A DNA stretch of 64,000 nt from a virus. A model generated the notes under the pieces. It saw nothing but the letters and a program-made list of their open reading frames with translations, was not told the DNA's origin and made no database searches. Numbering within the stretch: the first letter of the stretch is position 1; each line of letters opens with the position of its first letter. Of the stretch, positions 38,081 through 55,182 are shown piece after piece. Where the stretch lies: positions 1 through 64,000 of the IMG/VR virus record IMGVR_UViG_3300033489_000005; one strand, written 5' to 3'. The position numbers and the translations under genes are program-made.

Positions 38081-38212
38081 ATGGGAAATCCGATGCAGAA
38101 TGCAGCCGGTGACGATATTGTGGAATCGTTTCCTGGCGGTAAACCCCGTCCGGCTCCGGCTCCGGCTCCGGCTCCGCAGCCTGCCCCGCAGCCAAAACCC
38201 CAGGGGAAGTGA
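38081..38212 (+). CDS. 43-aa Pro/Ala-rich mini-ORF containing a (CCGGCT)4 microsatellite
   Basis: MGNPMQNAAGDDIVESFPGGKPRPAPAPAPAPQPAPQPKPQGK. The alternative reading is the 111-aa track ORF 38067..38402. Confidence 0.3.
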   Translation: MGNPMQNAAGDDIVESFPGGKPRPAPAPAPAPQPAPQPKPQGK

Positions 38213-38325
38213 TGGCGAAGAAACCCAGAACGCCGGGAAAGCCGGGAACCGGCGGCGGTCCCGGCGGCCCGAAAAACCCGACAGACTACCCCCGGCCGAC
38301 GCCGCCGCGAAAACCGGGGGCGTGA
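38212..38325 (+). CDS. 37-aa basic Pro/Gly-rich mini-ORF
   Basis: MAKKPRTPGKPGTGGGPGGPKNPTDYPRPTPPRKPGA, coupled by TGATG at both ends. Confidence 0.3.
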   Translation: MAKKPRTPGKPGTGGGPGGPKNPTDYPRPTPPRKPGA

Positions 38326-38402
38326 TGAGCAATCCAACGTTTTTGCTGTGGGTGTTCGTGGGGTTCGTGATTGTGTTTGTGGCCGCGTCGCTCTGCTTGT
38401 GA
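38325..38402 (+). CDS. 25-aa hydrophobic peptide
   Basis: MSNPTFLLWVFVGFVIVFVAASLCL. Confidence 0.35.
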   Translation: MSNPTFLLWVFVGFVIVFVAASLCL

Positions 38403-38415
38403 AAGGAAAATCTGA

Positions 38416-38493
38416 ATGAAAATCCAGCTTTTATGGGTTCTCGTCGCCCTGCTGTCGATTGCCGCTTTTGCGATGGTGGTAGCGGGCTCCTGA
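38416..38493 (+). CDS. 25-aa hydrophobic peptide
   Basis: MKIQLLWVLVALLSIAAFAMVVAGS, preceded by GAAAGGAAAA. Confidence 0.35.
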   Translation: MKIQLLWVLVALLSIAAFAMVVAGS

Positions 38494-38656
38494 ACGGCGC
38501 CGGACAAGCTAAGTAGTTATCCGGAAAGGGGTAAAATGCCGGTTCTCGCTTCCGAATCGAAAAAATTCGAGGCCTCGAAATTGGGAGTATTTCAACCGGA
38601 GATATCCATCCCCAAAATTGGGGATGGGTACTAAAAGTTGTAATAGGCCATAGGTC

Positions 38657-38785
38657 TTGACTCGGGCGCCGGGAACCGGTTAACAACAGGCGGCGCGGAT
38701 AGGCTGATCCCCGAAAGACAGATACTCTGGCTGTTTGCCGCGCCGCCTTCCCTCCCAGAGCCAACAGCAACAAGAGGCTGTTCGC
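38657..38785 (+). promoter_or_regulatory. conserved promoter (TTGACT-N17/18-TAACAA) plus structured leader, family member 4
   Basis: Leader: GGCGGCGCGG(38689-98)-ATAGG-...-CCCCGAAA-...-CCGCGCCGCC(38738-47)-TTCCC, a perfect 10-bp closing stem. Confidence 0.5.
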
Positions 38786-39979: not shown

Positions 39980-39983
39980 GACG

Positions 39984-40019
39984 AAAAAAGCCCCCGACCT
40001 CCCGGTCGGGGGCTTTTTT
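39984..40019. terminator. bidirectional rho-independent terminator at the convergence point
   Basis: AAAAAA-GCCCCCGACC-tccc-GGTCGGGGGC-TTTTTT. Confidence 0.85.
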
Positions 40020-40152
40020 CCTTTACCAAAGGCCGCGCTCCTCTTGTTTTCCTTCAAGAAATTTCCGTTCCCGGTTCGCCGCTTTCGCCAACATTCAAGC
40101 TTTGAACAGCCGGTCTCGCCGGTTCCCACACCAGCGCCGGAATGCCCGAATT

Positions 40153-40413
40153 TTATTCACAAAGGGCCTCCGCTTCCGCCAATTCGGATTTCCAGTTCAG
40201 GGGCAACGGTTCGCCCGCCAGGGCTTTTTTCTGCCATTTCCGCAGGATAGCCGCCCGCTGGCGGAGCATCCGAACCCGCTCGCCGTCAAATCTCCGTTTT
40301 TTGTCCGTGAACGATGCTCGGAATTTGAGGCATATCTCGTTTGCCCGGACTTCCAACTTTTCCGCGCTGCGCCCAAGTTCGACGTGGTCGAGCCAGTCAA
40401 GAAGCTTCTCCAT
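40153..40413 (-). CDS. hypothetical protein
   Basis: 86-aa ORF, last gene of the leftward early cluster. Confidence 0.6.
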   Translation of the reverse strand: MEKLLDWLDHVELGRSAEKLEVRANEICLKFRASFTDKKRRFDGERVRMLRQRAAILRKWQKKALAGEPLPLNWKSELAEAEALCE

Positions 40414-40891
40414 CCGCCTCCCCCTTCCGCGCTTTCCAGTCGAGCTGGGTGAGTTCCGCCGCAGTGCGCCATACGGAGGCCGTTGGGTCTGTCACCTCGC
40501 TAAGGTCGCCGTTGGCGAGCTGGAGGGCTTCCCAGAACTCCCGTTGCATCCAGGCCGCCCGGTCGTAGTAGTCCGAAACCGAGTGAATCGAGACGTCGAA
40601 TCCGAATTGAGCCGGGGATTTGCAGATTTCAATCAAAATCGCCCGGCCGTACAGCTCACAGATCCGGAATAGCTCCGCTTCAGAGAGCCGGAGAGGCTTC
40701 TCGGCCGGTTCACAGGCCCGGATGGTCCTGAGACGCGTCTCAGACGCCTGTAGCGGGCTCTCTGGCCCTCCTAGGGCCAAATTAGCCGCTATCGTCGCCT
40801 CCATGAGGCCCGTGGGGCTCAGAACGGCGTCTGGGGGCGTTTTCGCCCCCTTCCCAACGCCCGAAGTTTTCCATAATCCGAAAAGGCTCAT
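40397..40891 (-). CDS. hypothetical protein
   Basis: ATG at 40891 (MSLFGLWK...) abutting the upstream stop. Confidence 0.6.
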   Translation of the reverse strand: MSLFGLWKTSGVGKGAKTPPDAVLSPTGLMEATIAANLALGGPESPLQASETRLRTIRACEPAEKPLRLSEAELFRICELYGRAILIEICKSPAQFGFDVSIHSVSDYYDRAAWMQREFWEALQLANGDLSEVTDPTASVWRTAAELTQLDWKARKGEADGEAS

Positions 40892-41148
40892 CACGCGGCC
40901 CTCCAATCCGGTTTTGGCTCAAGGCGGACTTCTCCCCACGCGCCACGAAATTCGTTATCCTGGTTCCGGTACAGTCCGGCCCTGGTCAGCTGGGCAAACA
41001 GATTGCTGAGTTGCCGCCCGTCCGGTCGAGGCATCAATTCGGCCGTGGCGTTATCTAGGTAAACCATCCTCCAAATTGTTCCGTCTTTGTCCTCCTCGGC
41101 CTCTTGCTCCTTTTGGGAGGCGAGCGCTGAATACAGCGCCCGTCCCAT
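40891..41148 (-). CDS. hypothetical protein
   Basis: Internal ATG (MGRALYSALAS...) of track ORF 40891..41385. The upstream part of that ORF overlaps the better ORF 41165..41407. Confidence 0.5.
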   Translation of the reverse strand: MGRALYSALASQKEQEAEEDKDGTIWRMVYLDNATAELMPRPDGRQLSNLFAQLTRAGLYRNQDNEFRGAWGEVRLEPKPDWRAA

Positions 41149-41164
41149 TGCCGACACGTTGATT

Positions 41165-41407
41165 TTAGCCAACGGCTTTCCCCTTCTGACTGTTAGATAG
41201 TGGCAGGATATACTTATCAAACGCAGATTTAGGCGGCATAGGAACTTCGTAAAGCGGCTCACCTTCCCGTGTGCACGGGTAGAAGCCGAACTTTTCCGCC
41301 TCAAATCTTCCGTCATTCTGAATGCAGTAAAGTTTACGACTCTCCGGAGTAATATAGAATACTCGGAAAAAGCCGTTATCTTCACTGTGAAATTTATATT
41401 TAATCAT
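41165..41407 (-). CDS. hypothetical protein
   Basis: 80-aa ORF, MIKYKFHSEDNGFFRVFYITPE... Confidence 0.6.
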   Translation of the reverse strand: MIKYKFHSEDNGFFRVFYITPESRKLYCIQNDGRFEAEKFGFYPCTREGEPLYEVPMPPKSAFDKYILPLSNSQKGKAVG

Positions 41408-41618
41408 CTTCTCCTTCCACCGTGAGAGTTCCGCAAGATTTTCCGTTAGAATCCCGGAGTTTCAACTCGACTTTTTTCTGCTTTCCGCGTCCGCACAGCT
41501 CATGGGCCGCCCACGGGAAAGCCCGTTCAAAAAACGTGTACAGCTCCGCCGCTCTGCCTTCTCCCATGAAGGCGTCAGTTCCGCAGTCGATTTTGAGCGT
41601 AATTGTCTTAACTTTCAA
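41400..41618 (-). CDS. hypothetical protein
   Basis: 72-aa ORF with an 8-nt overlap. Confidence 0.6.
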   Translation of the reverse strand: MKVKTITLKIDCGTDAFMGEGRAAELYTFFERAFPWAAHELCGRGKQKKVELKLRDSNGKSCGTLTVEGEDD

Positions 41619-41800
41619 CGTCCTACCTCCAAAATTTGAGATGCAAGCCTGTCGCGGTCAGAACCGCGCACAACTCCGCCCTTTTTCCCTTCCGCGTCCG
41701 TGTACAGATAGACGTACTGGCCACGGATCTTATCGCCCGTTTTGCGCAAATAGAGGCGTTCATCCTTCTCTTGAGCTGAACGCAAGTCTTTCTTTTTCAT
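41615..41800 (-). CDS. hypothetical protein
   Basis: 61-aa basic ORF with an ATGA overlap. Confidence 0.55.
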   Translation of the reverse strand: MKKKDLRSAQEKDERLYLRKTGDKIRGQYVYLYTDAEGKKGGVVRGSDRDRLASQILEVGR

Positions 41801-41853
41801 GCTGTTTCTCCCTAAAATTTAGAGCGACGAGTTGCCCCGCCGCTCCGCCCCCT

Positions 41854-42111
41854 CTACGCCTTCACGAGTCCAAATTTTCCCATCCATTCAATGAGTTCGT
41901 GTTCCGACGTGAAGCATTTCGTTCCGTCGTGGCACTCCTCATTGTATGCTGGGCGTTCGTTCGGTTGTCCCCAGCCAATAGTGCTCACATTCCACAAGTC
42001 CTCGAGTTCAATCTCCGGAGTAGTTTTCACTATGGTTGCTCCAAAGTACACCGAAACGACTTTATCGTCGTCCCCATCATCTTCAGAGGGTATGAAGTGG
42101 ATTGTAATCAT
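41854..42111 (-). CDS. hypothetical protein
   Basis: 85-aa acidic ORF. Confidence 0.6.
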   Translation of the reverse strand: MITIHFIPSEDDGDDDKVVSVYFGATIVKTTPEIELEDLWNVSTIGWGQPNERPAYNEECHDGTKCFTSEHELIEWMGKFGLVKA

Positions 42112-42148
42112 CTTATTTCTCCGCTAGTCCGTTCGGATTGAACGTCGT

Positions 42149-42172
42149 GGGAGAGCGTTTAAACGCTCTCCC
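42149..42172. repeat. 24-bp perfect palindrome GGGAGAGCGTTTAAACGCTCTCCC
   Basis: Intergenic, centred on GTTTAAAC. Confidence 0.95.
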
Positions 42173-42179
42173 CAAAGCT

Positions 42180-42611
42180 TCAATCTTTAGTAGGGCTCAC
42201 GCGCAGCGATTCAGCCCGAATATCCCGAATAAGTTGAACATATCCGTCAATCTCGTCTTTAGATTGTGCCCCGTATGGGCAGTACATCTCAAGATAGTGC
42301 TCCAATGCGTTGCACAACTTCATGAGACGCGAGCCGTTGATTTCGATAGTCACGAGGTCGGGCCCAGCATGGCCTTTAGGCGTAGACGCCATGAACTTTT
42401 TGCGAACTTCCAACGTCTTATCCCCCACAATAAATGTGCTCGATAGTTCTCTATACGGCAGGCTGCCCGTTTTCATCGCTTCGCGAGCAAGACGATATGC
42501 ATCAAACGCGTTTTCCGGAGTTGGGTCAGCGTCGAAGCGCTTTTCGGCCGCCAGGGCGGCTTGATGCGCTTGCGTGGACTTTTCAAAATATGGGTTGTGA
42601 TTGTCCGTCAT
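42180..42611 (-). CDS. hypothetical protein
   Basis: 143-aa ORF. Confidence 0.65.
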   Translation of the reverse strand: MTDNHNPYFEKSTQAHQAALAAEKRFDADPTPENAFDAYRLAREAMKTGSLPYRELSSTFIVGDKTLEVRKKFMASTPKGHAGPDLVTIEINGSRLMKLCNALEHYLEMYCPYGAQSKDEIDGYVQLIRDIRAESLRVSPTKD

Positions 42612-42629
42612 GTTTGGTCCTTTCTCAGG

Positions 42630-43004
42630 TTATATTTTCGCTAGTTTTTCTAGCCCTTTGGCAGATACCCAGCGCCCGTGTGGGCTTATTCTTGCGAGAA
42701 CTGTTATCTTCTCCCAATATTCAGGTTTTGGTATTCTGCCTATCCCGCAAATAAATATGTAATCAAAGTTATTATACGACTCTTTTATACATATTTCACA
42801 TGGATTATTTATATAATCCATTATGTAATTTACTGCTTTTTCTGCGGTATCCCGTAAAGACACATCGATTCTAACATCATTATATACTGGACCAACTTGA
42901 AAACTATTTTCTTCGGTTTCGTCCACCTTGCTTATACTAACACTATATGCGCCCACACATTTTGAAGATTTACTTATTTTGTACTTCATTTGAATTCTAA
43001 ACAT
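42630..43004 (-). CDS. hypothetical protein
   Basis: AT-rich ORF. The ATG at 43004 is preceded by AAAGGA. The track start at 43028 is GTG. Confidence 0.6.
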   Translation of the reverse strand: MFRIQMKYKISKSSKCVGAYSVSISKVDETEENSFQVGPVYNDVRIDVSLRDTAEKAVNYIMDYINNPCEICIKESYNNFDYIFICGIGRIPKPEYWEKITVLARISPHGRWVSAKGLEKLAKI

Positions 43005-43061
43005 GCTTGGTCCTTTCAAGTTAACCACACAGTAGGGCGAATAAATCGCCCTACTATATTG

Positions 43062-43901
43062 TTAGCTAGTCGCACCATAGAAAGCATCGTGCCAGCGCTT
43101 CGAACCGGCTTTATCAGTCCCGAATGCATTGCGCGCTATTATTTCACTCCAGCGTTCAAGAGTTGAATTATACGGGTCGCGCCTACAACGATAACTCGCT
43201 GTAAATGGGACTGTGACGTCTTTCCCACCATGAAATCGCGCCATACGCCACACATAGTAAGCTCTGTTGAATGTAACCCTATCGTGTGTCGTTCCTTTCG
43301 GCTCACCTTTCCAGGCCCACGATGATTTGAGCCTGCCTTTGCTTTTGCCTTGCTGGGAGACGATAAGTAGCAAGATTCTGTCAAGTTCCGTTTTGCCAGC
43401 GTGGCGGAACTCCCCTAAACCCCAGCAAACGCCGCAGGTGTCCCATTCTTTTATGTTTTGGAATTCACTATCGACCTTCCCCGTTCCCCTGCACTTAATG
43501 CACGTGCAAATCGCGTCGTCCCCCTCCCCCTCTTGAACTACCGCCTTTTTCGGTTCTGGCGCGATTGACGCTGGGAAATGTTCTTCCGGAACACCTGGAT
43601 TGATGCATGGCGCTGAACGAAGCGTGTCAGTCAGTTTTTTGACGCCAATGCGGTTCGCAATGCGTCGCAGCGCCCGCCCCACTTTTTGAGCTTCTATGCC
43701 TGTCCATTCACTCAAGTCACGAACGGCGATATGACCGGAGTTGAATTCAGAGAGACGCAGGGCGCCATACTGTGACTTATGCGCCACAAAATAGAATTTA
43801 TCTTTTCCTATAAATACCTCGTATGCGGTTCCTTCGGCCGTTGTATAGGTTATTTCGTCGCTGTCTTTAGATTTTACAGGTATATTGAAGGCTATAGTCA
43901 T
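43062..43901 (-). CDS. hypothetical protein with CxxCxGxG-type zinc finger
   Basis: 279-aa ORF with CIKCRGTGKV...CGVCWGLG. Confidence 0.65.
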   Translation of the reverse strand: MTIAFNIPVKSKDSDEITYTTAEGTAYEVFIGKDKFYFVAHKSQYGALRLSEFNSGHIAVRDLSEWTGIEAQKVGRALRRIANRIGVKKLTDTLRSAPCINPGVPEEHFPASIAPEPKKAVVQEGEGDDAICTCIKCRGTGKVDSEFQNIKEWDTCGVCWGLGEFRHAGKTELDRILLLIVSQQGKSKGRLKSSWAWKGEPKGTTHDRVTFNRAYYVWRMARFHGGKDVTVPFTASYRCRRDPYNSTLERWSEIIARNAFGTDKAGSKRWHDAFYGATS

Positions 43902-43933
43902 CTTTACTTTCCTTTCTTCATAGTAAACAACCG

Positions 43934-43957
43934 CAGAGAGCGTTTAAACGCTCTCTG
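43934..43957. repeat. 24-bp perfect palindrome CAGAGAGCGTTTAAACGCTCTCTG
   Basis: Intergenic, centred on GTTTAAAC. Confidence 0.95.
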
Positions 43958-43967
43958 AAATTGTTCT

Positions 43968-44627
43968 CTATTTAGATTTAGGCTCTAAAAGGTGGGCTTC
44001 GTCATCATGAACCCAGACTGACCAAGTAACAGAGAATTGCTCTGTATCATCTATCTGGAAAATGAAGTCCTTAACGCCATGCTCGCGTAATTTCTTGGCA
44101 GCATCGCGAGGGTTATCATTCTGCCATTCATGCCAACCTGTAACATATGAGGAAGTTTGCTTGACATAACTATATTCTGTTAAGTCTATATCAAGCGTCA
44201 TTGCGGCGTTATCATTGCCTGTCAAAAACTCTATATACTCGGATGGTTCTTCCTTTACGCAATCACCGCAGATTATTTCACTAGCGCTTTCATTCAACCA
44301 GAAGTAGCGTTTCCACCCGTGACTATCGGGGGAAGTGCGTACGCACTTCCCACATTCACAAACTGCCCATTCATCACTCCATTCGAGTTCAGCGCCGAAG
44401 TGCTCAAGGATGTTGACCAAGCGAGACATGGTTCGCTCCGCTTTGGCCTCCCCCCTTGCGTGTTCGTTCCAGTTCGCTAGGACGACAACGCCGTTTTCGA
44501 GCGTCTCATATCCCGGTTCGGCATAACCGTTGTGAGCGACGCTCATATCCGGGCATACGTGAGGCATGGTCTGAGCAATCTCTAGAACTTTTCTAATCCA
44601 CCCAGTTCTTGCTTTCAAATCAGTCAT
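43968..44627 (-). CDS. hypothetical protein
   Basis: 219-aa ORF with several Cys pairs. Confidence 0.65.
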   Translation of the reverse strand: MTDLKARTGWIRKVLEIAQTMPHVCPDMSVAHNGYAEPGYETLENGVVVLANWNEHARGEAKAERTMSRLVNILEHFGAELEWSDEWAVCECGKCVRTSPDSHGWKRYFWLNESASEIICGDCVKEEPSEYIEFLTGNDNAAMTLDIDLTEYSYVKQTSSYVTGWHEWQNDNPRDAAKKLREHGVKDFIFQIDDTEQFSVTWSVWVHDDEAHLLEPKSK

Positions 44628-44698
44628 ATTCGCGCCTTCTCAAGTTAAACGCATTGCACTCATAATAAGCCACAGCATTGTGTGGCTTATCGCTGAAT

Positions 44699-45007
44699 TC
44701 AATCGCGTTTGTATGAAGAGTTAAATTCGCTATTCAGCTGTAAAGCTATATGTTCTTTGGCCTCGTCTAGCGACTCAGCCCTAAAAAATCGCTTCATTCT
44801 ATCCCACTGCACTATAATGTAGTAATTGGGATAACAAACTGTTTTATATTTGCCAGTAAATTTCCCCCCTCGTCTCACAGGTTCTTTTTCAAACTTCATA
44901 TCAAATACACATTCAATAGGGTCATACCCATTTACCTCAAGAGTGAACCCCTTGGGCGTGTCTTTACCTAACTTTACATCATTCGGCATAAGAAATGGCG
45001 CGCCCAT
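44699..45007 (-). CDS. hypothetical protein
   Basis: 102-aa AT-rich ORF with a TAATG overlap. Confidence 0.6.
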   Translation of the reverse strand: MGAPFLMPNDVKLGKDTPKGFTLEVNGYDPIECVFDMKFEKEPVRRGGKFTGKYKTVCYPNYYIIVQWDRMKRFFRAESLDEAKEHIALQLNSEFNSSYKRD

Positions 45008-45264
45008 TAGTATTCACTCCACATAAGGTTACCTTCTCTGCCCATTCCAATCCCGTAAGCATCAAGCGTGGCTTGCGCCAGTTCTTTCCGGAGCTTGATG
45101 ACCCTTTCGGTCAGCATGGCAAACGACAGCTTGGCGCGCTTGCACACATCGCTGTCAGGGCTAAACCGCCCGGCAATGCGTTCAGCGCTTTCGCGCCTGG
45201 ACATAGCCTCTCGATATTCGGCTTCAATCCGTTCGATTGAAGCCAATGCATCTACAAGTTGCAT
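45007..45264 (-). CDS. hypothetical protein
   Basis: The ATG at 45264 is preceded by AAAGGTGAG. Confidence 0.6.
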   Translation of the reverse strand: MQLVDALASIERIEAEYREAMSRRESAERIAGRFSPDSDVCKRAKLSFAMLTERVIKLRKELAQATLDAYGIGMGREGNLMWSEY

Positions 45265-45292
45265 CCTTCTCACCTTTCGCTTGCGTTAATCG

Positions 45293-45322
45293 CTACAGAG
45301 AGCGTTTAAACGCTCTCTGTAG
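45293..45322. repeat. 30-bp perfect palindrome CTACAGAGAGCGTTTAAACGCTCTCTGTAG
   Basis: Intergenic. Its flanks are conserved with the copies at 45680 and 46006. Confidence 0.95.
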
Positions 45323-45334
45323 ATTTAACACACT

Positions 45335-45649
45335 CTAAAGACCATTAAACGCGTCAAGCATGTCTTGATAACGAATATCGTCATAGTATGCTGTTATCTC
45401 ACGTCTCCACTGCTTACGCTTTGTGGCGTCTTTTGGAACGTATTTTAGAGGACAACTCCATGCTTCACGTTGCATACGTTTCTTTTCTAAGCGCATTGTG
45501 CGCTTTCTAAGCTCCGTTTTTGCTTTGATTTTGGTATATCTTAATCCTGGGATACTTCCTTCCGCATTAAATCTAACAGCATAGTGTTTCTTTCCTTTGA
45601 ATATGAAATGAATATTCATCACCATGCCACAGCAGATATAATCAGACAT
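45335..45649 (-). CDS. hypothetical protein
   Basis: The ATG at 45649 is preceded by AAAGGTG. Confidence 0.6.
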   Translation of the reverse strand: MSDYICCGMVMNIHFIFKGKKHYAVRFNAEGSIPGLRYTKIKAKTELRKRTMRLEKKRMQREAWSCPLKYVPKDATKRKQWRREITAYYDDIRYQDMLDAFNGL

Positions 45650-45679
45650 AAGTTTCACCTTTCGTTATGTGTTGATGGA

Positions 45680-45707
45680 TACAGAGAGCGTTTAAACGCT
45701 CTCTGTA
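45680..45707. repeat. 28-bp perfect palindrome TACAGAGAGCGTTTAAACGCTCTCTGTA
   Basis: Intergenic. Confidence 0.95.
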
Positions 45708-45721
45708 GATTTAACACAAGT

Positions 45722-45979
45722 TTAACTATCTGCTTTCCAAACAATCGTTTTATCTGTGAAAACAATATCTGCGTGAGTGTTGAGCATCATTTGAGCAACG
45801 GCTTTCGCGGCTTGCGTCATGCTATCGTATCTCTGCTCTTTCTGCTTATTAAACCACTCCTTATCATGAGTATCATAGTGGTCTGGATATGGGCTTAACC
45901 ATACCTGATAATCATGTGAGCACTGATACAGATAAGCCAGCGCCTTATCTAATGTAAGTTCTGTGTTTTCTTCCATCAT
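45722..45979 (-). CDS. hypothetical protein
   Basis: 85-aa ORF with RBS GGAGAAAGG. Confidence 0.6.
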   Translation of the reverse strand: MMEENTELTLDKALAYLYQCSHDYQVWLSPYPDHYDTHDKEWFNKQKEQRYDSMTQAAKAVAQMMLNTHADIVFTDKTIVWKADS

Positions 45980-46005
45980 ACTCGCCTTTCTCCATGTGTT
46001 GATGA

Positions 46006-46035
46006 TTACAGAGAGTGTTTAAACACTCTCTGTAA
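46006..46035. repeat. 30-bp perfect palindrome TTACAGAGAGTGTTTAAACACTCTCTGTAA (outer arms TGTGTTGA/TCAACACA extend it to about 50 bp)
   Basis: Intergenic. It carries compensated symmetric changes (CG to TG and CG to CA) relative to the other copies. Confidence 0.95.
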
Positions 46036-46047
46036 GTTCAACACACA

Positions 46048-46239
46048 TCAATAATAACGTATTTTCTTAGGAAAACGCTTTCCTGACAGCTTTCGTAGCA
46101 GTTTTAGCGCTCGCGTCTTCAGTGTGTCGTGCGTTAATGCACCGAGGCGTATACCGCTCAACTCTTCCTCAACAACGTAATTCCTACGCCCAATTCTGTT
46201 ATCTTCGATTGTCATGATAAATTTGCGTTTTCGCATCAC
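46048..46239 (-). CDS. hypothetical protein
   Basis: 63-aa basic ORF. Confidence 0.55.
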   Translation of the reverse strand: MMRKRKFIMTIEDNRIGRRNYVVEEELSGIRLGALTHDTLKTRALKLLRKLSGKRFPKKIRYY

Positions 46240-46469
46240 ACAACTCCTTGCTCTCGCATACGGAGTGCGCGCGCTTGCGCCACATGAAAGCGCGCAAGCC
46301 CATACTCCCCATAAAATCTATGGACTCTGGCTGACTCCAACAGTTCACTGTGTGAACCGTACGGAACCCATTTTTTAGAACGTGCTAATATATCAGCCAT
46401 AAGTTTAAGTTCTGAGAACATACATAACTCCCCCATAGGAAATGTTCTCACAATGAGAACACTCGCCAT
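46236..46469 (-). CDS. hypothetical protein (first gene of the leftward early cluster)
   Basis: 77-aa ORF with an ATGA overlap. Confidence 0.55.
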   Translation of the reverse strand: MASVLIVRTFPMGELCMFSELKLMADILARSKKWVPYGSHSELLESARVHRFYGEYGLARFHVAQARALRMREQGVV

Positions 46470-46761
46470 GAGGCGCTTGTACGCTTCAACCCATGGTGGA
46501 AGTCTTTAAACCCATAATCGCACTACGGGCATAAAGATCATTTACAATTTCAAAGAGCACTGCTTAGCAGACACACTTATGGCTTGCGGCCAAAAGCGCC
46601 TATGAAGGGTCAAAACCGGGGTAAACCCAGGGAAACCATCACCAAAACCTCACTAACTCAATTCATGCATTCACCATCAACATAAAAACACAACATATCA
46701 TTTCGTGCAAGCCTATTTCATCGGTTGTGGTAAAAAAATCTTTTCAACCTAAAATACCCCT

Positions 46762-46814
46762 CACAGAGGGCGTTTAAACGCACACTAATATGTTGCGTTT
46801 AAACGCCCTCTGTG
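46762..46814. promoter_or_regulatory. twin-operator-like inverted repeat in the divergent control region
   Basis: CACAGAGGGCGTTTAAACGC (46762-81), a 13-nt spacer, then GCGTTTAAACGCCCTCTGTG (46795-814). It lies between the divergent gene blocks (46469 leftward, 46878 rightward). Candidate -35/-10 elements overlap each arm. Confidence 0.55.
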
Positions 46815-46877
46815 CCAAATATGGGTTGGGTTGGTTATACCGAATAACTAACACGGTGATAAAGAAGGAAAAACAAT

Positions 46878-47453
46878 ATGTTAGCTAAATTGACGCGTGA
46901 AGGTTGGCTCGAACTGGCAATATCAAGACTGAAGCCACGTTTTGTTGAACATGGCGTGCAACTGCCTGACAATATCAGAGTAACAGTAGGGTTTACCTCA
47001 CGGGGCGGCAAAAAGGCGATAGGTCAAGTGTGGTCAGATACAGCATCTGAGGGCGGATACTATGAGATATTCATCCACCCCAGTCTTGAGCAAGCAAAAG
47101 CGCTGGGCGTGCTAGTTCATGAGTTGGTGCATATCGGAGTTGGGTTGAAAGCAGGCCATGGCCAACAGTTTAAGAAGATAGCTATCAAAGTTGGGTTGAC
47201 TGGCAAAATGCGAGCCACGGAAGAAACTGAAGAACTATTGGAGCATTTCAAGGATCTAGACTTGCCTGATTACCCCCATTACGTACTGAATTCTGACGCA
47301 ATATCCTCAGGACCAAAGAAACAAAGCACAAGACTAATAAAAGCAGAGTGCATTATTTGCGGATACAACTTCAGAATAACTCAGAAATGGATAGACGAGG
47401 CAGGATTACCTGATTGCCCTTGCTGTCGCGAGCCGATGACTGTGGCAGCGTAG
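46878..47453 (+). CDS. SprT-like zinc metalloprotease-domain protein with C-terminal zinc ribbon
   Basis: HELVH motif (LVHELVHIGVG) and C-terminal CIICG...CPCC. Confidence 0.55.
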   Translation: MLAKLTREGWLELAISRLKPRFVEHGVQLPDNIRVTVGFTSRGGKKAIGQVWSDTASEGGYYEIFIHPSLEQAKALGVLVHELVHIGVGLKAGHGQQFKKIAIKVGLTGKMRATEETEELLEHFKDLDLPDYPHYVLNSDAISSGPKKQSTRLIKAECIICGYNFRITQKWIDEAGLPDCPCCREPMTVAA

Positions 47454-47460
47454 GGTAATA

Positions 47461-47486
47461 CAGCGAGGCGTTTAAACGCCTCGCTG
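47461..47486. repeat. 26-bp perfect palindrome CAGCGAGGCGTTTAAACGCCTCGCTG
   Basis: Lies 8 nt downstream of the stop of 46878..47453. Confidence 0.95.
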
Positions 47487-47550
47487 ACTATTCGAAATAT
47501 GCACGAATATTGATATTCCAGAATACATGTTATGCGAATGGAGAGACGAC

Positions 47551-47868
47551 ATGCTGACAACCATCACACGTATATTCGGAATGACCATGAGACGCCCACA
47601 GAAGCCCACAGAAGCCCCCAAGCCCAGAGAGGCTACGCCCATAGCAGTGTATGCCAGAAGGGCGCTAGAAGAGCTGGAATGGCTGTCTGAGCAGGTTTAT
47701 TGGGAGGGGTTAAGGGAAGAGCGTCAAGCGGCAGTTGAGCTAGCGGCGTTTGAGCGGGAGCAAGCGGCAATCGGCGCCCGACAACTGGCAGCCAAGCGCA
47801 GGGAATGGAGCAAGCGGATGCATGCGGCCAAGGCAGCCAAGAAGGCAGCAATGAAGAAAGCTAAATGA
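47551..47868 (+). CDS. hypothetical basic coiled-coil protein
   Basis: The ATG at 47551 is preceded by GGAGAG. The track start is 47527. Confidence 0.55.
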   Translation: MLTTITRIFGMTMRRPQKPTEAPKPREATPIAVYARRALEELEWLSEQVYWEGLREERQAAVELAAFEREQAAIGARQLAAKRREWSKRMHAAKAAKKAAMKKAK

Positions 47869-47886
47869 TATCAATGAGTTATCAAT

Positions 47887-47910
47887 GCGAGAGCGTTTAA
47901 ACGCTCTCGC
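47887..47910. repeat. 24-bp perfect palindrome GCGAGAGCGTTTAAACGCTCTCGC
   Basis: Lies 19 nt downstream of the stop of 47551..47868. Confidence 0.95.
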
Positions 47911-47984
47911 CATACGCCAACGATATCAATGGGTTAGTATACATTTACACATTTGAGTATTCCATAACACAGGGGCTAGCTCCC

Positions 47985-48006
47985 GTGAAACATTTAAATG
48001 TTTCAC
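47985..48006. repeat. 22-bp perfect palindrome GTGAAACATTTAAATGTTTCAC
   Basis: Intergenic, centred on ATTTAAAT, upstream of the tRNA and the late genes. Confidence 0.95.
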
Positions 48007-48178
48007 AGCCGGAGGGGGGAGGGGCCCCTGGCCAAGGCCCGAGCTTTGGCTAAGCGTCGTCCAAAAATTTTTTTGAAATTTTCTGGTAGGGCCAAAACCC
48101 CCTTGCCGCTGCCCGGTCCCTGACTTATGTTCCCCAAGCTCATTGCGTTTCTTTCTGAGTCCCGGCGGCCGGTCTTAA

Positions 48179-48255
48179 TGCGGGATAGAGAAGTGGCCCA
48201 TCTCGTCGGTCTCATAAACCGGAAACCGGCAGTTCGAATCTGCCTCCCGCTCCCA
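48179..48255 (+). tRNA. tRNA(CAT), Met/initiator-like, with encoded CCA
   Basis: Hand-folded: GAGA/TCTC D stem, TCGGT-CTCATAA-ACCGG anticodon arm, GGCAG-TTCGAAT-CTGCC T arm, acceptor TGCGGGA/TCCCGCT with a 1:72 U-U mismatch, then C-CCA. Confidence 0.75.
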
Positions 48256-48275
48256 ACTATCAGGACCACCAACCC

Positions 48276-48482
48276 ATGAAGCCCAACGCCGCCATTGCCT
48301 TCTTTGTTTTTGTCGTCTTCCTTATCATCAGCTCAGCAATCTATCACGCCCACGCCGCCGGTAGCTGCACGTACGAAACGCGCATCCGCCACGCCGAGGG
48401 CGGCGGGACGGTCGCCGTCACCGTCCGTATCTGTTGCGACGCCAGAGGCCGGTGCACGGAAACCGTCATCCCGAATCGCTAA
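48276..48482 (+). CDS. small secreted/membrane Cys-rich protein
   Basis: Signal-peptide or TM-like N-terminus (AIAFFVFVVFLIISSAIYHAHA) followed by 5 Cys. Confidence 0.55.
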   Translation: MKPNAAIAFFVFVVFLIISSAIYHAHAAGSCTYETRIRHAEGGGTVAVTVRICCDARGRCTETVIPNR

Positions 48483-48552
48483 AAATCTACCCATGACCCC
48501 GATGTCATGGGTAAATTATCTCGTTTTTTACCCATGACTCAGGAATCCAGCC

Positions 48553-48822
48553 ATGCCCCAGAAAATCACTGTCCACACGTCGGGGTTCATTATCATCGAG
48601 AACTCGGACGCCGAGCCCTGCAGGCTTCCCGGCGCCTTCTCTCTGGCCATCGATAAAATCTATTGCGTCTCCCCATTCCAGTACGAGGGCGGCGGCGAAG
48701 GCGTCGTTGTCTACGTTGACGGCTCAGACGAGGTATACAACGTTGAGCTGCCGCTCATAACGGTCCTGAACGCCATCGCCGACGCGGCCCGCATGCGCGC
48801 AATCGATCTGAAGCACATCTGA
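48553..48822 (+). CDS. hypothetical protein
   Basis: 89-aa ORF. Confidence 0.6.
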   Translation: MPQKITVHTSGFIIIENSDAEPCRLPGAFSLAIDKIYCVSPFQYEGGGEGVVVYVDGSDEVYNVELPLITVLNAIADAARMRAIDLKHI

Positions 48823-49034
48823 TGCCGTCGCGCGCTAATCCTCCGGCCCGGCCGACCCGATGGTCAGACACACAGCAGCGCAAGGATTTTGACCGTATCC
48901 GGCAACTGTGGTCCGAGTGGAAGAACAAGCACACCGGCGACTTTCTTGAGATAGAGGAAGCCGCCGATGGCATAGACGCGGCGCTTGAAGTTCTGGACGA
49001 ATTGATGAAAGGTCGTATCATATACGACGAGTAA
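48822..49034 (+). CDS. hypothetical protein
   Basis: 70-aa ORF with a TGATG overlap. Confidence 0.6.
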   Translation: MPSRANPPARPTRWSDTQQRKDFDRIRQLWSEWKNKHTGDFLEIEEAADGIDAALEVLDELMKGRIIYDE

Positions 49035-49054
49035 TCATTCGGGAGTCCAGCCCC

Positions 49055-49579
49055 ATGGCGTCTATCAGTTTTATCAAACCGGCTCTGCCGGTAATCGACC
49101 CAACAAAGCAGCGCGCCCCCGCGCCGGAAGCCCAAGAGCTGCAATGCTCGACCACCATCCAGATGCAGGGCGCGCTGACCGTCGCTATAGAAGCTCCGGC
49201 CGATGACCAGCTTTTATTTAAGCTTGTCCCCCCAGCCGACCGGCAGCAGGGAATGCTCAAGCTCGTTTGGGTTCAGTCGTCCATTCGCGCGCTTATGCCG
49301 ACCGTCAACCAGATGGTTGAGCAGGCGCTTGTTCAGACACAGCTTTTCCCCATCGCCCGTGTCGTGAATCCGGCGTTCGCCACCGACGCCCAAGGCGGCC
49401 TGCTTTATCTTTTTCAAGTGCCCGTCAGCACGTTCCCGCCCCAGCAAGCGCCATCCCCCACGCCCCAACAGCGCCCGGCTGCGCCCGGCCCCATCGAGCC
49501 GCTTCCTTACACGACAAACCCGGCGATGACCCAGGCGGACATTGACGCTTTAATTGGGGTGTCCAATGGCGGCGCGTAA
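49055..49579 (+). CDS. hypothetical protein
   Basis: 174-aa ORF. Confidence 0.6.
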   Translation: MASISFIKPALPVIDPTKQRAPAPEAQELQCSTTIQMQGALTVAIEAPADDQLLFKLVPPADRQQGMLKLVWVQSSIRALMPTVNQMVEQALVQTQLFPIARVVNPAFATDAQGGLLYLFQVPVSTFPPQQAPSPTPQQRPAAPGPIEPLPYTTNPAMTQADIDALIGVSNGGA

Positions 49580-50228
49580 GGGCGAGCCACACGGGCAGGT
49601 CAACCCGAAGACGGGGCTTGTCCCCCGTCAGGAGTTGTTTTGTCAGTATATCGTCGCTGGGATGACCCTGGCCGAGGCCACCAAGCTTGCCGGTTACCAG
49701 ATAACGTCCGCCGCGACCACCAAGCGCGACATAGACCAGTATTGGTCAGAACGAGGCGCTAAAATACGGAAAGCTCCGCTCGTTCAGGCGCGCATCGGCG
49801 TGTTGATGGCTGAACAAGCGGAAGTGCTGGCCAAGCAGCGCAATCAGCTGTCTGATAAATTTCAGATGAACATCGAGCGCTTGACGGAGATGCTTCTTCA
49901 GGACAGGCATTTCGCCCGAACTGGCCGTCTGTCCATGGAGGAGAACGCCGAGGTTCAGCCGGACCATCGGCCGGACGCCCGCGCCGCCGTGCAGGCCTCC
50001 ATGGGGCTCGCCAAGCTGCACGGCCTCTTAATCGACAAGTCGGAAATCACCGTCCAGGGTTCGATTACCCGGATGTCGAATGAGGAGCTTTTGCGGTTCA
50101 TCGACACTGTGCATAAGGAAATCGGCCCCATGATTGAGGTAGAGGCCCTGGAGATTCCGGACTCCCCCCGACAGCGGCGTCTACCGGCTAAGAAGGGGCA
50201 TGTGGTTCTGGATTTAGACAATGACTGA
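49566..50228 (+). CDS. terS: terminase small subunit
   Basis: LVPRQELFCQYIVAGMTLAEATKLAGYQ... fits the HTH N-terminus typical of TerS, and the gene is immediately upstream of TerL. Confidence 0.7.
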   Translation: MAARKGEPHGQVNPKTGLVPRQELFCQYIVAGMTLAEATKLAGYQITSAATTKRDIDQYWSERGAKIRKAPLVQARIGVLMAEQAEVLAKQRNQLSDKFQMNIERLTEMLLQDRHFARTGRLSMEENAEVQPDHRPDARAAVQASMGLAKLHGLLIDKSEITVQGSITRMSNEELLRFIDTVHKEIGPMIEVEALEIPDSPRQRRLPAKKGHVVLDLDND

Positions 50229-53016
50229 CGACTACCACTTCCGCCGCCTGCTGGAGAAGACGGCCGACCCGAGGCAGGCCCATGAGCTGCTGGCCTCGGC
50301 GATGCACGAGTTCAAGATGCGCATCGAGCGCCAGAAGCAGAGCCGCCCTGGCGGTCTGCTGGAGTTCGTAGAGTATTTTTGGGAGTGCATCGAGCCGGGG
50401 CGCGAGTTCGTCAAGGGCTGGCCGCTTGAGGCGATGGCCATGCACTTGGAAGGAGTGACATATGGAGCTATTACCAGATTATTAATTAATGTGCCGCCTG
50501 GAAGCATGAAAAGTTTACTCTTAAATTGTTTTTGGCCTGCATGGGAGTGGTCAGCATGCGATAGACCAGGAACTCGGTACATATCGTTCAGTTATTCTTC
50601 ATTACTTACTGAGCGCGATAACCAGCGTATGCTTGACCTTATTGAGAGTCAGAAATTCCAAGACTTGTGGGGGCACAAGTTTTCTATGCGTCAGAAGGGC
50701 GTTACTAAGATTTCCAACACTAAGTTCGGTTGGAAGTTCGCATCCTCTGTGCGCGGCACTGGCACCGGCGAGCGCGCCGACCGGGTTCTATGCTTCCCCC
50801 ATGAAACGCTGGTCGCCACTGAGCACGGGCCGATGGCCATCGGCGATATCGTCAAGAAGCGTTTAAACGTTCGCGTCTGGAGCCGGAATTTGGTGACCGG
50901 CCGCAACGAGCTGCGGCCGGTCACCGGCTGGCGGCATAACCCAGGCTCAGACCTTGTCAGGATCAGCTATACTGGGGGCTCCATCAGATGTACGCTTGAC
51001 CACAGGTTCTGGGTTGAGGGGCGCGGATGGGTTGAGGCCCGGCTTTTGGAGGCCGGTGACGTGGTTCCATGTGCGGCCGGTTTTAATGTGCGTGACATTT
51101 TGCCCGCTCATTCCATATCTGAGTCCTATTTCAGTGGGCGTCCCGGCAGCATTGAAAATCTCAAGCGCAGTTTCCGCCGTTATTTTGGCAGTCGGCCTTG
51201 GGTGAGCCACGCCTTTTTTAACCCTTTCTCCATGATTTCCCGCAATAAGATTAAGGTGCGCCCACGTTCTACCGTTAAATATACTCTCGATAGTGCTAGG
51301 ATGGACGCCGAACTCAAGAGCTACGCTTTTAGCGGTATGCGTATCTCTTCTGGAGAATATTTTGCGGACGAGTTCATCGGTAAGATGTGCCGCGCCGTTA
51401 CGGAATCCTCCGTTTTTCTTGCAGTCCGCAATATTTTGCGCCCGCGTTCCATATTCGAGGTTGGAAAGACGACAGTTCGCGCGTTTGTCGTTGCGGTGTC
51501 TGACTTCTTGGCCTTCAGGAACCGGCCCTATGAACGTCAGCATCATGAGCTGATGGACGAACACATAATGGGTTTGTCCATCCCGGCGCAGGGTGACGCG
51601 GGGGTAGCCCTTACTCAAAGTCGGGGTCATAAAACGGCCGTCGCGGCTGATTGTGTGGGCGGTGGTAGAGTTCCGATCCCGGTCAGTGTAGACAGGGGCG
51701 CTTCCCTTGCGCGCTGTGGTTCGAGGCTTGCTATAGACGCGGCCGTAGTTGGAAATAAGGTAGTTGGGGAAGCCAGCGGCTTCACGCCAGACTTCGGGAC
51801 CGTTCTCGGCGTCGAGGATGATGGACATGTTATGGAAACCTTCTGTTTGACCGTAGAAGGCAACCATAACATGTTCGTTTCTGACAAGCAAGACACTGTG
51901 TTCAGTCTTGCCAGCAATTGTGATGATCCACACAACATCAAAGAGGGCGAGTCGCAGACCATCCGCGAAGAGACGGTGCGCTGGTTCCGCGAGGCCATGT
52001 CTAACCGCCTCAACCACATGACCAAGTCGGCGATTATCGTCATCATGCAGCGCGTCCATCAAGAGGACGTGTCGGGCGTCATCCTTCATGAGGACCTCGG
52101 CTACGACCACCTCATGATTCCGATGCTCTATGAGGAGGGCGCCCGCTGCCACACCTCCCTCGGCTGGACCGACCCGCGCAGCGTCGACGGCGAGTGCTTC
52201 TGGCCAGACCGGTTCCCGCCCGCCGCCGTCGAGGAGTGCTTGAAGCTCGGCGAGTTTGCTTTTGCCAGTCAATACCAACAGAGGCCCGCGCCGCGCGGCG
52301 GCGGCATCTTCAAGAACGAATATTGGAACATCTGGGAACCGGATGACGGCCGCTACCCCCGGTTTGACTTCATCCTGGCCTCGGTGGACCCGGCGTACAC
52401 GCACCATGATGAGAACGACCCGTCAGCCATGACGGTCTGGGGGCTCAATTACGCCGATGACGGGACGCCGCGCGTGTTCCTTATCGCCGCGTGGCGCAAG
52501 TGGCTGCAGATTCACGGGCCGGACGTTGACCGGGAGTATGGGGAGCCACTCCAGGCCTATGAGGAGCGACGGAAAAAGAGCTGGGGGCTGGTTGAGTGGA
52601 TTTCGCACACCTGCAAGCGGTTCCAGGTCGACCGCCTTCTTGTCGAGGCCAAGGCCTCCGGCATCTCTGTGGTTCAGGAACTGCAGCGCCTCTTGTTTCA
52701 GCAACAGTTCGGCATCGAGTTTGTCAATCCTGGCCGGGCTGACAAAGAAGTCAGGGCGAACCGAGTGCAGCATATCTGGTCCGCAGGCATGATTTACCGA
52801 CCAGATCGCCCTTGGGCGGAGATGGTTGAGGAAGAAATGGCCGCTTTTCCAAAAGCGCGCTATGATGACCTGTGCGACTCCGCCACCCAGGCTTTGTGGT
52901 GGTTCAGGCAGAACAATATGCTGATGCGCCGGGAAGAAATACGGGCCGCGAATGACCCGGAGACGAACGCTAGCAGCAACCCGATGGCGGATTCAGCGCC
53001 TCTTTATCCGATGTGA
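50221..53016 (+). CDS. terL: terminase large subunit interrupted by a 376-aa intein (spliced product about 555 aa)
   Basis: Walker A VPPGSMKS. The Walker-B-like ADRVL|CDDPHN is restored across the insert. A C-terminal nuclease-type region is present. The ORF is 931 aa. Confidence 0.85.
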   Translation: MTDDYHFRRLLEKTADPRQAHELLASAMHEFKMRIERQKQSRPGGLLEFVEYFWECIEPGREFVKGWPLEAMAMHLEGVTYGAITRLLINVPPGSMKSLLLNCFWPAWEWSACDRPGTRYISFSYSSLLTERDNQRMLDLIESQKFQDLWGHKFSMRQKGVTKISNTKFGWKFASSVRGTGTGERADRVLCFPHETLVATEHGPMAIGDIVKKRLNVRVWSRNLVTGRNELRPVTGWRHNPGSDLVRISYTGGSIRCTLDHRFWVEGRGWVEARLLEAGDVVPCAAGFNVRDILPAHSISESYFSGRPGSIENLKRSFRRYFGSRPWVSHAFFNPFSMISRNKIKVRPRSTVKYTLDSARMDAELKSYAFSGMRISSGEYFADEFIGKMCRAVTESSVFLAVRNILRPRSIFEVGKTTVRAFVVAVSDFLAFRNRPYERQHHELMDEHIMGLSIPAQGDAGVALTQSRGHKTAVAADCVGGGRVPIPVSVDRGASLARCGSRLAIDAAVVGNKVVGEASGFTPDFGTVLGVEDDGHVMETFCLTVEGNHNMFVSDKQDTVFSLASNCDDPHNIKEGESQTIREETVRWFREAMSNRLNHMTKSAIIVIMQRVHQEDVSGVILHEDLGYDHLMIPMLYEEGARCHTSLGWTDPRSVDGECFWPDRFPPAAVEECLKLGEFAFASQYQQRPAPRGGGIFKNEYWNIWEPDDGRYPRFDFILASVDPAYTHHDENDPSAMTVWGLNYADDGTPRVFLIAAWRKWLQIHGPDVDREYGEPLQAYEERRKKSWGLVEWISHTCKRFQVDRLLVEAKASGISVVQELQRLLFQQQFGIEFVNPGRADKEVRANRVQHIWSAGMIYRPDRPWAEMVEEEMAAFPKARYDDLCDSATQALWWFRQNNMLMRREEIRAANDPETNASSNPMADSAPLYPM
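50791..51918 (+). mobile_element. intein (Hint domain split by a 0.9-kb insert)
   Basis: It starts CFPHETLVATEHGPMAIGDIV, has TLDH (block B-like), then FCLTVEGNHNMFV...SLASN followed by the +1 Cys. Confidence 0.8.
50947..51828 (-). CDS. HNH homing endonuclease (NUMOD4-like + HNH_3-like + two NUMOD1/IENR1-like HTH repeats), antisense inside the intein
   Basis: MSIILDAENGPEVWREAAGFPNYLISNYGRVYS...GYPRVTLRRDGQTHYVFVHQLMMLTFIGPVPEGQEVRHRNDKRANCRLSNLEYGTRAQN...STIESIFNGRTWAHL...NVTHIKTGRTWNHV. The internal ATG at 51828 of track ORF 50947..52407 is preceded by GAAGG. Confidence 0.75.
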   Translation of the reverse strand: MSIILDAENGPEVWREAAGFPNYLISNYGRVYSKPRTTARKGSAPVYTDRDRNSTTAHTISRDGRFMTPTLSKGYPRVTLRRDGQTHYVFVHQLMMLTFIGPVPEGQEVRHRNDKRANCRLSNLEYGTRAQNIADCKKNGGFRNGAAHLTDELVRKIFSRRDTHTAKSVALEFGVHPSTIESIFNGRTWAHLNLIAGNHGERVKKGVAHPRPTAKITAETALEIFNAAGTPTEIGLRYGMSGQNVTHIKTGRTWNHVTGLQKPGLNPSAPLNPEPVVKRTSDGAPSIADPDKV

Positions 53017-55175: not shown

Positions 55176-55182
55176 GAAAAAC

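Follow-up and report, generated by a model that had tools for sequence, protein, structure and literature searches.

A dispersed palindromic motif, an inverted repeat built on it, and their association with a SprT-like protease gene in phages

The 64,000-nucleotide stretch analyzed here (positions 1 to 64,000 of IMG/VR virus record IMGVR_UViG_3300033489_000005; the window) carries an inverted repeat in the gap between two divergent gene blocks. The repeat is built on an 8-base palindrome, GTTTAAAC, that recurs throughout the window, and the first gene to its right encodes a SprT-like zinc metalloprotease. The closest described case is the 17-bp dyad repeat of the Cluster O mycobacteriophages, 5'-TGTTCGGNNNCCGAACA, which is present in 34 copies in Corndog and whose function and reader are not known (PMC4351075). 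Both motifs are short palindromes with tens of copies genome-wide, intergenic as well as inside open reading frames (ORFs), for which a DNA-binding protein is presumed. The motif described here differs in having an 8-bp core with intergenic copies extended to perfect hairpins, and in occurring in unrelated phages of diverse G+C content, where it is tied to one gene family. We regard it as a new member of the family of dispersed phage operators. The L5 gp71 stoperators and the P1 C1 operators likewise consist of many sites spread over the genome, which are asymmetric, are read by classical temperate-phage repressors and, in the case of the stoperators, depend on orientation. They share with the present motif the many copies of one short site, often inside operons, through which one phage protein would control many units or block elongation. 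Here, in contrast, the site is a palindrome or a hybrid of half-sites, in a phage that looks lytic and shows no classical repressor. Repeated stem-loops also separate small early genes in T4-type phages (promoter early stem-loop, or PeSL, cassettes) and in T7 (RNase III sites), but these have no invariant palindromic apex, no copies within ORFs, and no link to a specific protein gene.

Proteases have been linked to palindromic operators before. ImmA/ImmR, like IrrE/DdrO, is a regulon of a metalloprotease and a repressor; in both, a helix-turn-helix (HTH) repressor reads a palindrome and is cleaved by the protease, which belongs to family COG2856. The palindrome of the IrrE/DdrO metalloprotease-repressor regulon is the radiation/desiccation response motif (RDRM) (PMC7213743). 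The present system resembles these regulons in the conservation of a zinc metalloprotease gene together with a palindromic operator regulon, but no partner repressor is conserved beside the protease gene, and the protease family is SprT-like rather than COG2856. ArdC and Spartan are DNA-dependent SprT-type metalloproteases and provide precedents on mobile elements; ArdC counters type I restriction and binds single-stranded DNA non-specifically through a separate N-terminal domain (PMC7213743). The likeness to these proteins lies in the HExxH zincin core with a further metal ligand, in the coupling of DNA binding to a protease domain, and in early expression from a mobile element. ArdC, however, has no known sequence motif, and the present protein resembles these only weakly (17 bits in Pfam, where the cut-off is 25.6; PDB profile, E = 0.03). 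Full-text searches, which extended to phage R5C and to SprT-like phage proteins, turned up no account of GTTTAAAC or its variant GTGTAAAC in phages, nor of a link between such a motif and SprT-like genes.

The inverted repeat and the dispersed motif

The gap between the leftward start codon (ATG, 46469) and the rightward one (ATG, 46878) measures 408 bp, as the original prediction, made from the letters of the window, had it. The gap contains a 53-bp element composed of two perfect 21-nt arms that are 100% complementary and are separated by an 11-nt spacer (Table 1). The same element had been reported with 20-nt arms and a 13-nt spacer, so that its existence stands while its dimensions change by one base trimmed from each arm. 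The palindromic core ascribed to each arm is present as well and is the 12-bp sequence GCGTTTAAACGC (46770-46781 and 46795-46806), the two identical copies standing 25 bp apart from center to center. Given two such cores, our own calculation puts the chance of nine extra outer complementary bases at about 4e-6, and a perfect repeat of 21 nt greatly exceeds what chance would give. Folded, the element forms a 21-bp stem of −39 to −42 kcal/mol (z of about −10 to −11), and the SprT-like gene begins 64 nt to its right.

Both sites are overlapped by −35-like hexamers, all of them weak matches. On the right, the hexamers lie where they had been proposed (TTGCGT at 46793-46798, an 18-nt spacer, and AAATAT at 46817-46822). 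The overlap of TTGCGT with the right-hand site is like that in TTGCGTTTACAC of phage 4A, and the homologous position in the related contig L199 reads TTGCAT-17-CATATA. On the left, the TGCGTT/TATTTT pair had been given a spacing of about 18 nt, but its actual spacer is 20 nt; TTTAAA-16-TATTTT is a better-spaced leftward reading, which is not conserved as such in L199 or L012. A conserved non-coding block farther to the left reads TTGAAA on the minus strand of the window and TTGACA in the relatives, and may belong to a leftward promoter or leader.

The related contigs differ in their control-region sites. L199, whose SprT-like protein is 78% identical, keeps the left site and has GCATCCTAAAGC followed by GCCCCCTATG at the right-hand position. 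L012 (SprT-like protein 73% identical) has a single site, the right part being deleted. L008 (portal protein 72% identical) has two sites 252 bp apart, one of which precedes the start codon by 50 nt. In L009 (portal protein 71% identical), no site occurs in the divergent gap. It follows that the 21-bp repeat represents either a lineage-specific doubling of one conserved site or a homogenized version of it. The geometry of a two-operator bistable switch, which had been suggested for this region, is accordingly not supported, as the second site is decayed in L199 and deleted in L012, and L009 has no site in the gap. The motif itself persists in these relatives, with 18 copies of GTTTAAAC in L008, 11 in L009, 10 in L012, and 9 in L199.

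In the window, GTTTAAAC occurs 22 times, against a mean of 0.61 and a maximum of 2 in 100 dinucleotide shuffles, and 18 of the 22 copies have the form CGTTTAAACG. In the 53-bp element, the palindrome is extended to GCGTTTAAACGC and flanked by CACAGAGGGC arms. Nine copies are perfect palindromes of 24 to 30 bp with G+C-rich arms of 8 to 11 bp, and such hairpin copies follow nearly every early gene. Five lie within or end the leftward early operon, including the copy between convergent genes (42149-42172); these begin within about 12 nt of a stop codon and 30 to 40 nt before the next start codon. Two more follow the first two rightward genes, and one follows the gene at 58933-59997. Folding of the window hairpins around a UUAA loop yields −18 to −30 kcal/mol. 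Of these hairpins, that at 43934-43957 alone passed an intrinsic-terminator scan, and no T-run follows the stem of the others; in the relatives L210 and MW202675, T-runs do follow the motif-capped hairpins. The arms vary between sites in the relatives L008 and L150 yet stay complementary, with a compensatory change between the L008 sites at 1872 and 2333. Among imperfect arm pairs read in the mRNA sense, G.U outnumbers A.C by 8 to 1 (one-sided P of about 0.02 in a small sample), which suggests that the arms of the hairpin copies work in RNA. Two intercistronic hairpins of the leftward operon, at 43031-43055 and at about 44650-44690, have no GTTTAAAC apex, and one of them precedes GCGTTTAAC, a core short of one A.

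The remaining copies are bare cores of 8 to 12 bp in late and replication genes, 11 of 12 inside ORFs and the other just before a start codon. In 2,000 synonymous-codon shuffles of 39 genes, 0.99 ± 0.81 sites (maximum, 4) were obtained within ORFs where 11 are observed, which implies selection on the DNA or RNA sequence itself. Sites beyond the early region are spaced more evenly than random, with a coefficient of variation (CV) of 0.33 for positions 1 to 42200 (P = 0.003) and of 0.23 for 50000 to 64000 (P = 0.017), and the same holds in L008 (P = 0.002). Other roles considered for the motif were rejected. UUUAAAC is a slippery heptamer, but programmed frameshifting does not agree with sites in both non-stop frames and with many intergenic copies. 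Integron attC sites carry their conserved core at the base of the hairpin, whereas here the core is at the apex. As to physical ends or nicks at the sites, only contig L001 starts in a site, and eleven other contig ends do not coincide with one. L001 starts exactly within the control-region site (TAAACGCAAC...), which is probably an assembly break.

Co-occurrence of the motif with the SprT-like gene

GTTTAAAC or its variants GTGTAAAC and GTGTACAC co-occur with a SprT-like gene in phages of 32 to 70% G+C. A motif-first survey, in which IMG/VR was scanned by pattern for paired CGTTTAAACG sites, retrieved 41 loci. Among these, L124 (32% G+C) has 21 sites in 7.4 kb, L157 has 16 sites in 5.6 kb, L146 carries 13 sites in a tandem array whose period is 16 to 17 bp, and L150 has eight hairpin cassettes. 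All-versus-all blastp of the motif-rich loci and the lineage of the window identified the SprT-like protein as the only family common to seven unrelated groups, and a hidden Markov model (HMM) search added SprT-like genes in L129, L130/L145, L168, L172, L178, and L179. A second gene family beside the SprT-like gene was sought with phmmer within 5 kb on either side, and none was found; what looked like clusters were ORFs antisense to the SprT-like gene itself.

The converse, protein-first sample comprised 12 homologues chosen by protein similarity and contig size, blind to the motif. Eight of the 12 contigs (L199, L201, L203, L204, L205, L206, L209, and L210) are enriched 12- to 112-fold (Poisson P < 1e-3). 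Two are borderline: L202 has one site, 13 nt past the stop codon, and L208 has two, both within the SprT-like gene. The other two, each of 69% G+C, lack GTTTAAAC and carry a variant, GTTTACAC in L200 (8 against 0.06 expected) and GTGTACAC in L207 (12 against 0.17 expected). As a control, among 62 loci of at least 8 kb retrieved through the portal protein, which are not phylogenetically independent, the motif is enriched in 4 of 4 with a SprT-like gene and in 0 of 58 without (Fisher P = 1.8e-6).

Cultured phages show the same association. Dinoroseobacter phage R5C has 6 sites against 0.14 expected, Enterobacter phage Arya 5 against 0.39, and Acinetobacter phage Alexa 5 against 0.42; the last two each have a site 24 to 28 nt ahead of the SprT-like start codon. 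Microbacterium phage SuMoo lacks GTTTAAAC; it carries GTGTAAAC or its complement 16 times, where about 0.3 would be expected, and one copy precedes the SprT-like gene by 59 nt. MW202675 (L002) has a palindrome of its own, TCGTACGA, in 10 copies against 0.66 expected. Two of these (31613 and 32537) cap terminator-like hairpins inside TTGACA-N17-TAGGGT promoters, and one TCGTACGA-capped hairpin lies 34 nt before a distant SprT-like homologue. No such motif is found in Bordetella phage CN1 and Pseudomonas phage Epa5. Features of the protein vary with the motif: the CN1 homologue has lost the zinc-ribbon cysteines and the KKQxTRxxK segment, and the TCGTACGA lineage has altered residues in this segment. 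Epa5 is the sister of CN1 on the SprT-like tree. Three variants, GTTT|AAAC, GTGT|AAAC, and GTGT|ACAC, are represented, and the hybrid one is oriented either way in promoter spacers. Such a half-site series fits a dimer that reads double-stranded DNA.

The position of the sites connects them with transcription. Among relatives with the SprT-like gene, sigma-A-type promoters of SuMoo, L200, and phage 4A hold the motif, or a variant that differs by one or two bases, in their 17- to 18-nt spacer. Their pattern is TTGCGC-N5-6-motif-N3-4-TANNNT, the asymmetric variant occurring in either orientation. A promoter of L210 reads TTGACA-g-GTTTAAAC-N9-TAAGTT, and that of MW202675 reads TTGACA-N7-TCGTACGA-N2-TAGGGT. 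The spacer is a classic repressor-operator position, and the link between motif and transcription control made by the original prediction is therefore supported in kind by the relatives, the specific two-operator switch being the part that is not supported. The SprT-like start is preceded by a site, at a distance of 24 to 110 nt, in the window, L012, L199, L008, L124, L210, Arya, Alexa, and SuMoo. A recurrent layout combines at least one such upstream site with a GTTTAAAC site past the SprT-like stop (core at 13 to 23 nt), which is usually a hairpin. This downstream site is found at the same position (core about 13 to 23 nt past the stop) in L012, L008, L009, L124, L150, L157, L202, and L210, with weak or absent arms in L009 and L202. 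Most copies in the window lie at gene ends or inside ORFs, beyond what the switching of two promoters involves.

Some further arrangements accompany these sites. In SuMoo (L191, 34690-47230), a strongly conserved promoter cassette, CGCGTAAGACG-N1-2-TTTGCGCG-N4-GTGTAAAC-N3-4-TANNNT, of which the intergenic sites are part, stands before at least five genes. Tandem GTTTAAAC arrays with periods of 13 to 18 bp, often at contig ends, are iteron- or centromere-like (L146, 6546-6760; L210, 11095-11129; L153, 5478-5590). Several genes of L206 have a site no more than about 10 nt past the start codon (6603, 8533, 8688, and 10118); two of these begin M-x-T-F-K with the site at codons 3 to 5. Many other sites of L206, as of L124, lie just upstream of the ribosome-binding sequence.

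In the SprT-like protein, an HExxH...GH motif is combined with a C-terminal zinc ribbon. Across 61 aligned homologues, H81, E82, H85, H94, F98, R152, C158, and C180 are invariant and K147, K148, Q149, T151, and K155 nearly so. HExxH and the downstream third metal ligand (GH) are present, and the aligned stretch matches the Spartan motif. The score of the window protein for the Pfam SprT-like family (17.1 bits) is below threshold; several homologues carry PF10263. The AlphaFold model is confident (predicted local distance difference test [pLDDT], 92.9), and no nuclease motif is found in the protein. In L008 (4323-5633) and L009 (103-813), the SprT-like proteins have long N-terminal extensions of (KAP)n or (AKPE)n repeats.

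Candidate readings of the repeat

Most likely, the motif is the mark of a control system widespread among phages and so far undescribed, not of an isolated genetic switch. For the repeat itself, we favor a reading that has about an even chance of being correct: it would be a doubled, promoter-proximal operator within a dispersed regulon, and a dimeric protein of the phage, probably the SprT-like one, would recognize it. The motif would be the DNA counterpart of a conserved phage module centered on the SprT-like gene. We infer both the identity of this reader and the effect of its binding on transcription. A two-fold symmetric phage protein would bind each 8-bp palindrome as a dimer, and the best candidate is the SprT-like protein, which would make contact through the KKQxTRxxK segment and the C-terminal zinc ribbon. 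Binding over the −35 element and spacer of the rightward promoter, and beside the leftward one, would set the expression of the SprT-like gene and of the early operons. The hairpin copies after early genes would act in the transcript as well, as 3' or intercistronic stem-loops, and the bare copies, spread evenly over late and replication genes, would be further docking sites.

A number of observations weigh against this reading. The second site, which creates the repeat, is not conserved, and the distance from site to start codon (24 to 110 nt) follows no fixed geometry. No candidate in the gap passes a sigma-70 consensus scan, and a position-weight scan gives 8.8 bits at most, the hexamers being weak. 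The SprT-like fold is a protease fold and no known sequence-specific DNA reader; the PDB profile search gives a weak match to Spartan only, and Foldseek finds nothing significant in the PDB for the AlphaFold model (no match below E = 0.2). A small regulator that evolves fast and is encoded at another locus could instead be the true reader, the SprT-like gene then being no more than a conserved gene of its regulon. Furthermore, the covariation of the arms and their tolerance of G.U pairs point to a role of the intergenic copies at the RNA level that DNA binding alone does not explain.

This last point leads to a purely structural explanation, in which the repeat is a very stable stem-loop or cruciform that works between the divergent operons as a bidirectional terminator or insulator, or else as a 5' stabilizing hairpin of the rightward mRNA; it would be of one class with the intercistronic hairpins and need no dedicated binding protein. 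The stable 21-bp stem accords with it, as do the nine other copies that form perfect hairpins directly after stop codons, the arms that covary between sites and relatives (L008, 1872 versus 2333), the 8-to-1 preponderance of G.U among mismatches, and the T-runs after motif-capped hairpins in L210 and MW202675. It leaves unexplained, however, the invariant 8-bp apex, the synonymous-site selection on bare copies in ORFs and their even spacing, the armless tandem arrays (L146) and the armless promoter-spacer copies of actinophages, and the tie to one protein family; moreover, the window hairpins lack U-tracts, and only one passes the terminator scan. We consider this explanation rather unlikely. 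The motif might also be a mark for a DNA transaction (a nickase or nuclease site, a hotspot of recombination or cassette exchange, a replication or packaging signal, or a dock for a DNA-anchored protease), the control-region copy being incidental. Such a function is consistent with the even spacing outside the early region (P = 0.002 to 0.02), the tandem arrays at contig ends (L146, L153, and L155), the contig that begins inside a site (L001), and the copies bordering small early genes, which look like mobile regulatory cassettes. It also agrees with the DNA dependence of Spartan- and ArdC-type proteases (PMC7213743). The other contig ends are away from sites, however, the SprT-like protein has no nuclease motif, and the placement in promoter spacers in several lineages favors transcription. 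We regard this explanation as unlikely.

The lambda-like bistable switch of the original prediction, in which a classical repressor would bind both sites cooperatively and shut both divergent promoters, has in its favor the two identical dyad sites between divergent gene blocks, the −35-like hexamers that overlap each of them, and the Bro-N/ANT antirepressor-like proteins encoded by the phage. The pair of sites is not conserved in L199, L012, and L009, however, and no HTH repressor, integrase, or Cro-like gene was found among the window ORFs scanned. Moreover, 20 more copies of the motif lie mostly away from promoters, and the promoter matches are weak. We regard this switch as improbable. A more far-reaching form of the doubled-operator reading, which we consider unlikely, is a two-part system that phages of many bacterial phyla may carry. 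An early SprT-like protease, its zinc-ribbon head reading GT(T/G)TA(A/C)AC, would be anchored along the phage DNA at sites seeded genome-wide, which lie at promoters, form hairpins at the ends of genes, and are spaced evenly along long operons. If this were true, the anchored protease could control transcription and also clear or cleave DNA-bound host proteins such as translocating restriction enzymes, silencers, and roadblocks. Such a protease would amount to an ArdC/Spartan relative that is addressed by sequence, and the inverted repeat would serve it as an autoregulatory docking site of the highest affinity. The chance that the motif belongs to a protease system of this type, which would be new in kind, is modest.

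Earlier dispersed phage palindromes, such as that of Cluster O, came without a candidate reader. Here, one 8-bp motif with its half-site variants follows a single gene family from about 32 to 70% G+C, and its carriers include the cultured phages R5C, Arya, Alexa, and SuMoo, which make the question directly testable. Thousands of annotations as “SprT-like protease” gain a concrete cis-partner, which may represent a new way of regulating or protecting phage DNA. For annotation, the motif can serve as a practical guide to promoters and intercistronic boundaries in these phages.

The window and its other features

Pfam and PHROGs scans of the window ORFs identify a novel tailed phage with recognizable terminase, portal, virion, and ejection genes. 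Megablast of positions 44000 to 49000 found no close DNA relative among deposited phages, and the nearest deposited genome, MW202675, has a portal protein only 46% identical and is without GTTTAAAC. The head and packaging genes comprise the small terminase, the large terminase (with an intein), and the portal protein, and the replication-type genes encode a family A DNA polymerase, a primase-polymerase, and an SNF2 helicase. Two Bro-N proteins (Bro-N/ANT antirepressor-like), a PD-(D/E)XK nuclease, and three tRNAs are also encoded. Among about 50 window ORFs scanned against Pfam or PHROGs, no RNA polymerase, integrase, HTH repressor, or Cro-like gene is found, and the genes flanking the operators likewise have no HTH or repressor match. 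The lifestyle of this phage looks lytic. A model of hairpin promoters read by a phage RNA polymerase, as in N4, was rejected, since no RNA polymerase was found and the 1,940-residue protein matches ejection and virion proteins. An overlap of the window ends, as expected for a full circle, was sought and not found. The features of the control region and the motif copies of the window are listed in Table 1.

Table 1. Coordinates of the inverted repeat, candidate promoters, motif copies, and SprT-like gene in the window
Feature	Position	Strand	Description
Left arm	46762..46782		CACAGAGGGCGTTTAAACGCA; holds GTTTAAAC at 46772-46779; site kept at the same alignment position in L199 and L012
Spacer	46783..46793		11 nt, asymmetric, CACTAATATGT; loop if the element folds
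Right arm	46794..46814		TGCGTTTAAACGCCCTCTGTG; holds GTTTAAAC at 46797-46804; lineage-specific copy
Candidate rightward promoter	46793..46822	+	TTGCGT-18-AAATAT; putative −35 overlaps the right-hand site
Candidate leftward promoter	46751..46778	-	TTTAAA-16-TATTTT, 8.8 bits; putative −35 is the core of the left site; weak
Conserved non-coding control-region block	46536..46560		GATCATTTACAATTTCAAAGAGCA; shared by the window, L012, and L008
SprT-like zinc-metalloprotease/zinc-ribbon gene	46878..47453	+	191 amino acids; phrog_6361, E = 4e-44; first rightward gene
Hairpin palindrome, GTTTAAAC apex	47461..47486		Begins 8 nt past the SprT-like gene (end, 47453)
Hairpin palindrome	47887..47910		After gene 47527-47868
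Intercistronic hairpin cassette, leftward early operon	46006..46035		
Intercistronic hairpin cassette, leftward early operon	45680..45707		
Intercistronic hairpin cassette, leftward early operon	45293..45322		
Intercistronic hairpin cassette, leftward early operon	43934..43957		Only window hairpin passing the terminator scan
Hairpin palindrome	42149..42172		Between convergent genes 41422-42141 (+) and 42180-42611 (-)
Hairpin palindrome	60007..60032		Directly after gene 58933-59997
Bare cores, twelve	2240..63569		Starts 2240, 9746, 12476, 17559, 21246, 26006, 33328, 36590, 50861, 53795, 55938, 63562

The large terminase gene (50221-53016) encodes 931 amino acids, with Pfam Intein_splicing and PT-HINT matches between the ATPase and nuclease parts; the relatives L199 and L008 have intein-free large terminases of about 556 to 575 amino acids. 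At the left edge of the window (1-250), a 60-bp unit is present in four in-frame tandem copies at the start of the ORF at 11-1237, which is glycine-rich and probably encodes a tail or fiber protein truncated by the window edge. Rfam returned a tRNA match only, together with a meaningless microRNA-like match to the inverted repeat. A conserved non-coding stretch at 47990-48255, a G-rich run followed by aaaaattttttt, lies upstream of the tRNA-Met gene (48179-48255) and is common to L001 and L012; possible identities are a small RNA and a promoter or terminator region.

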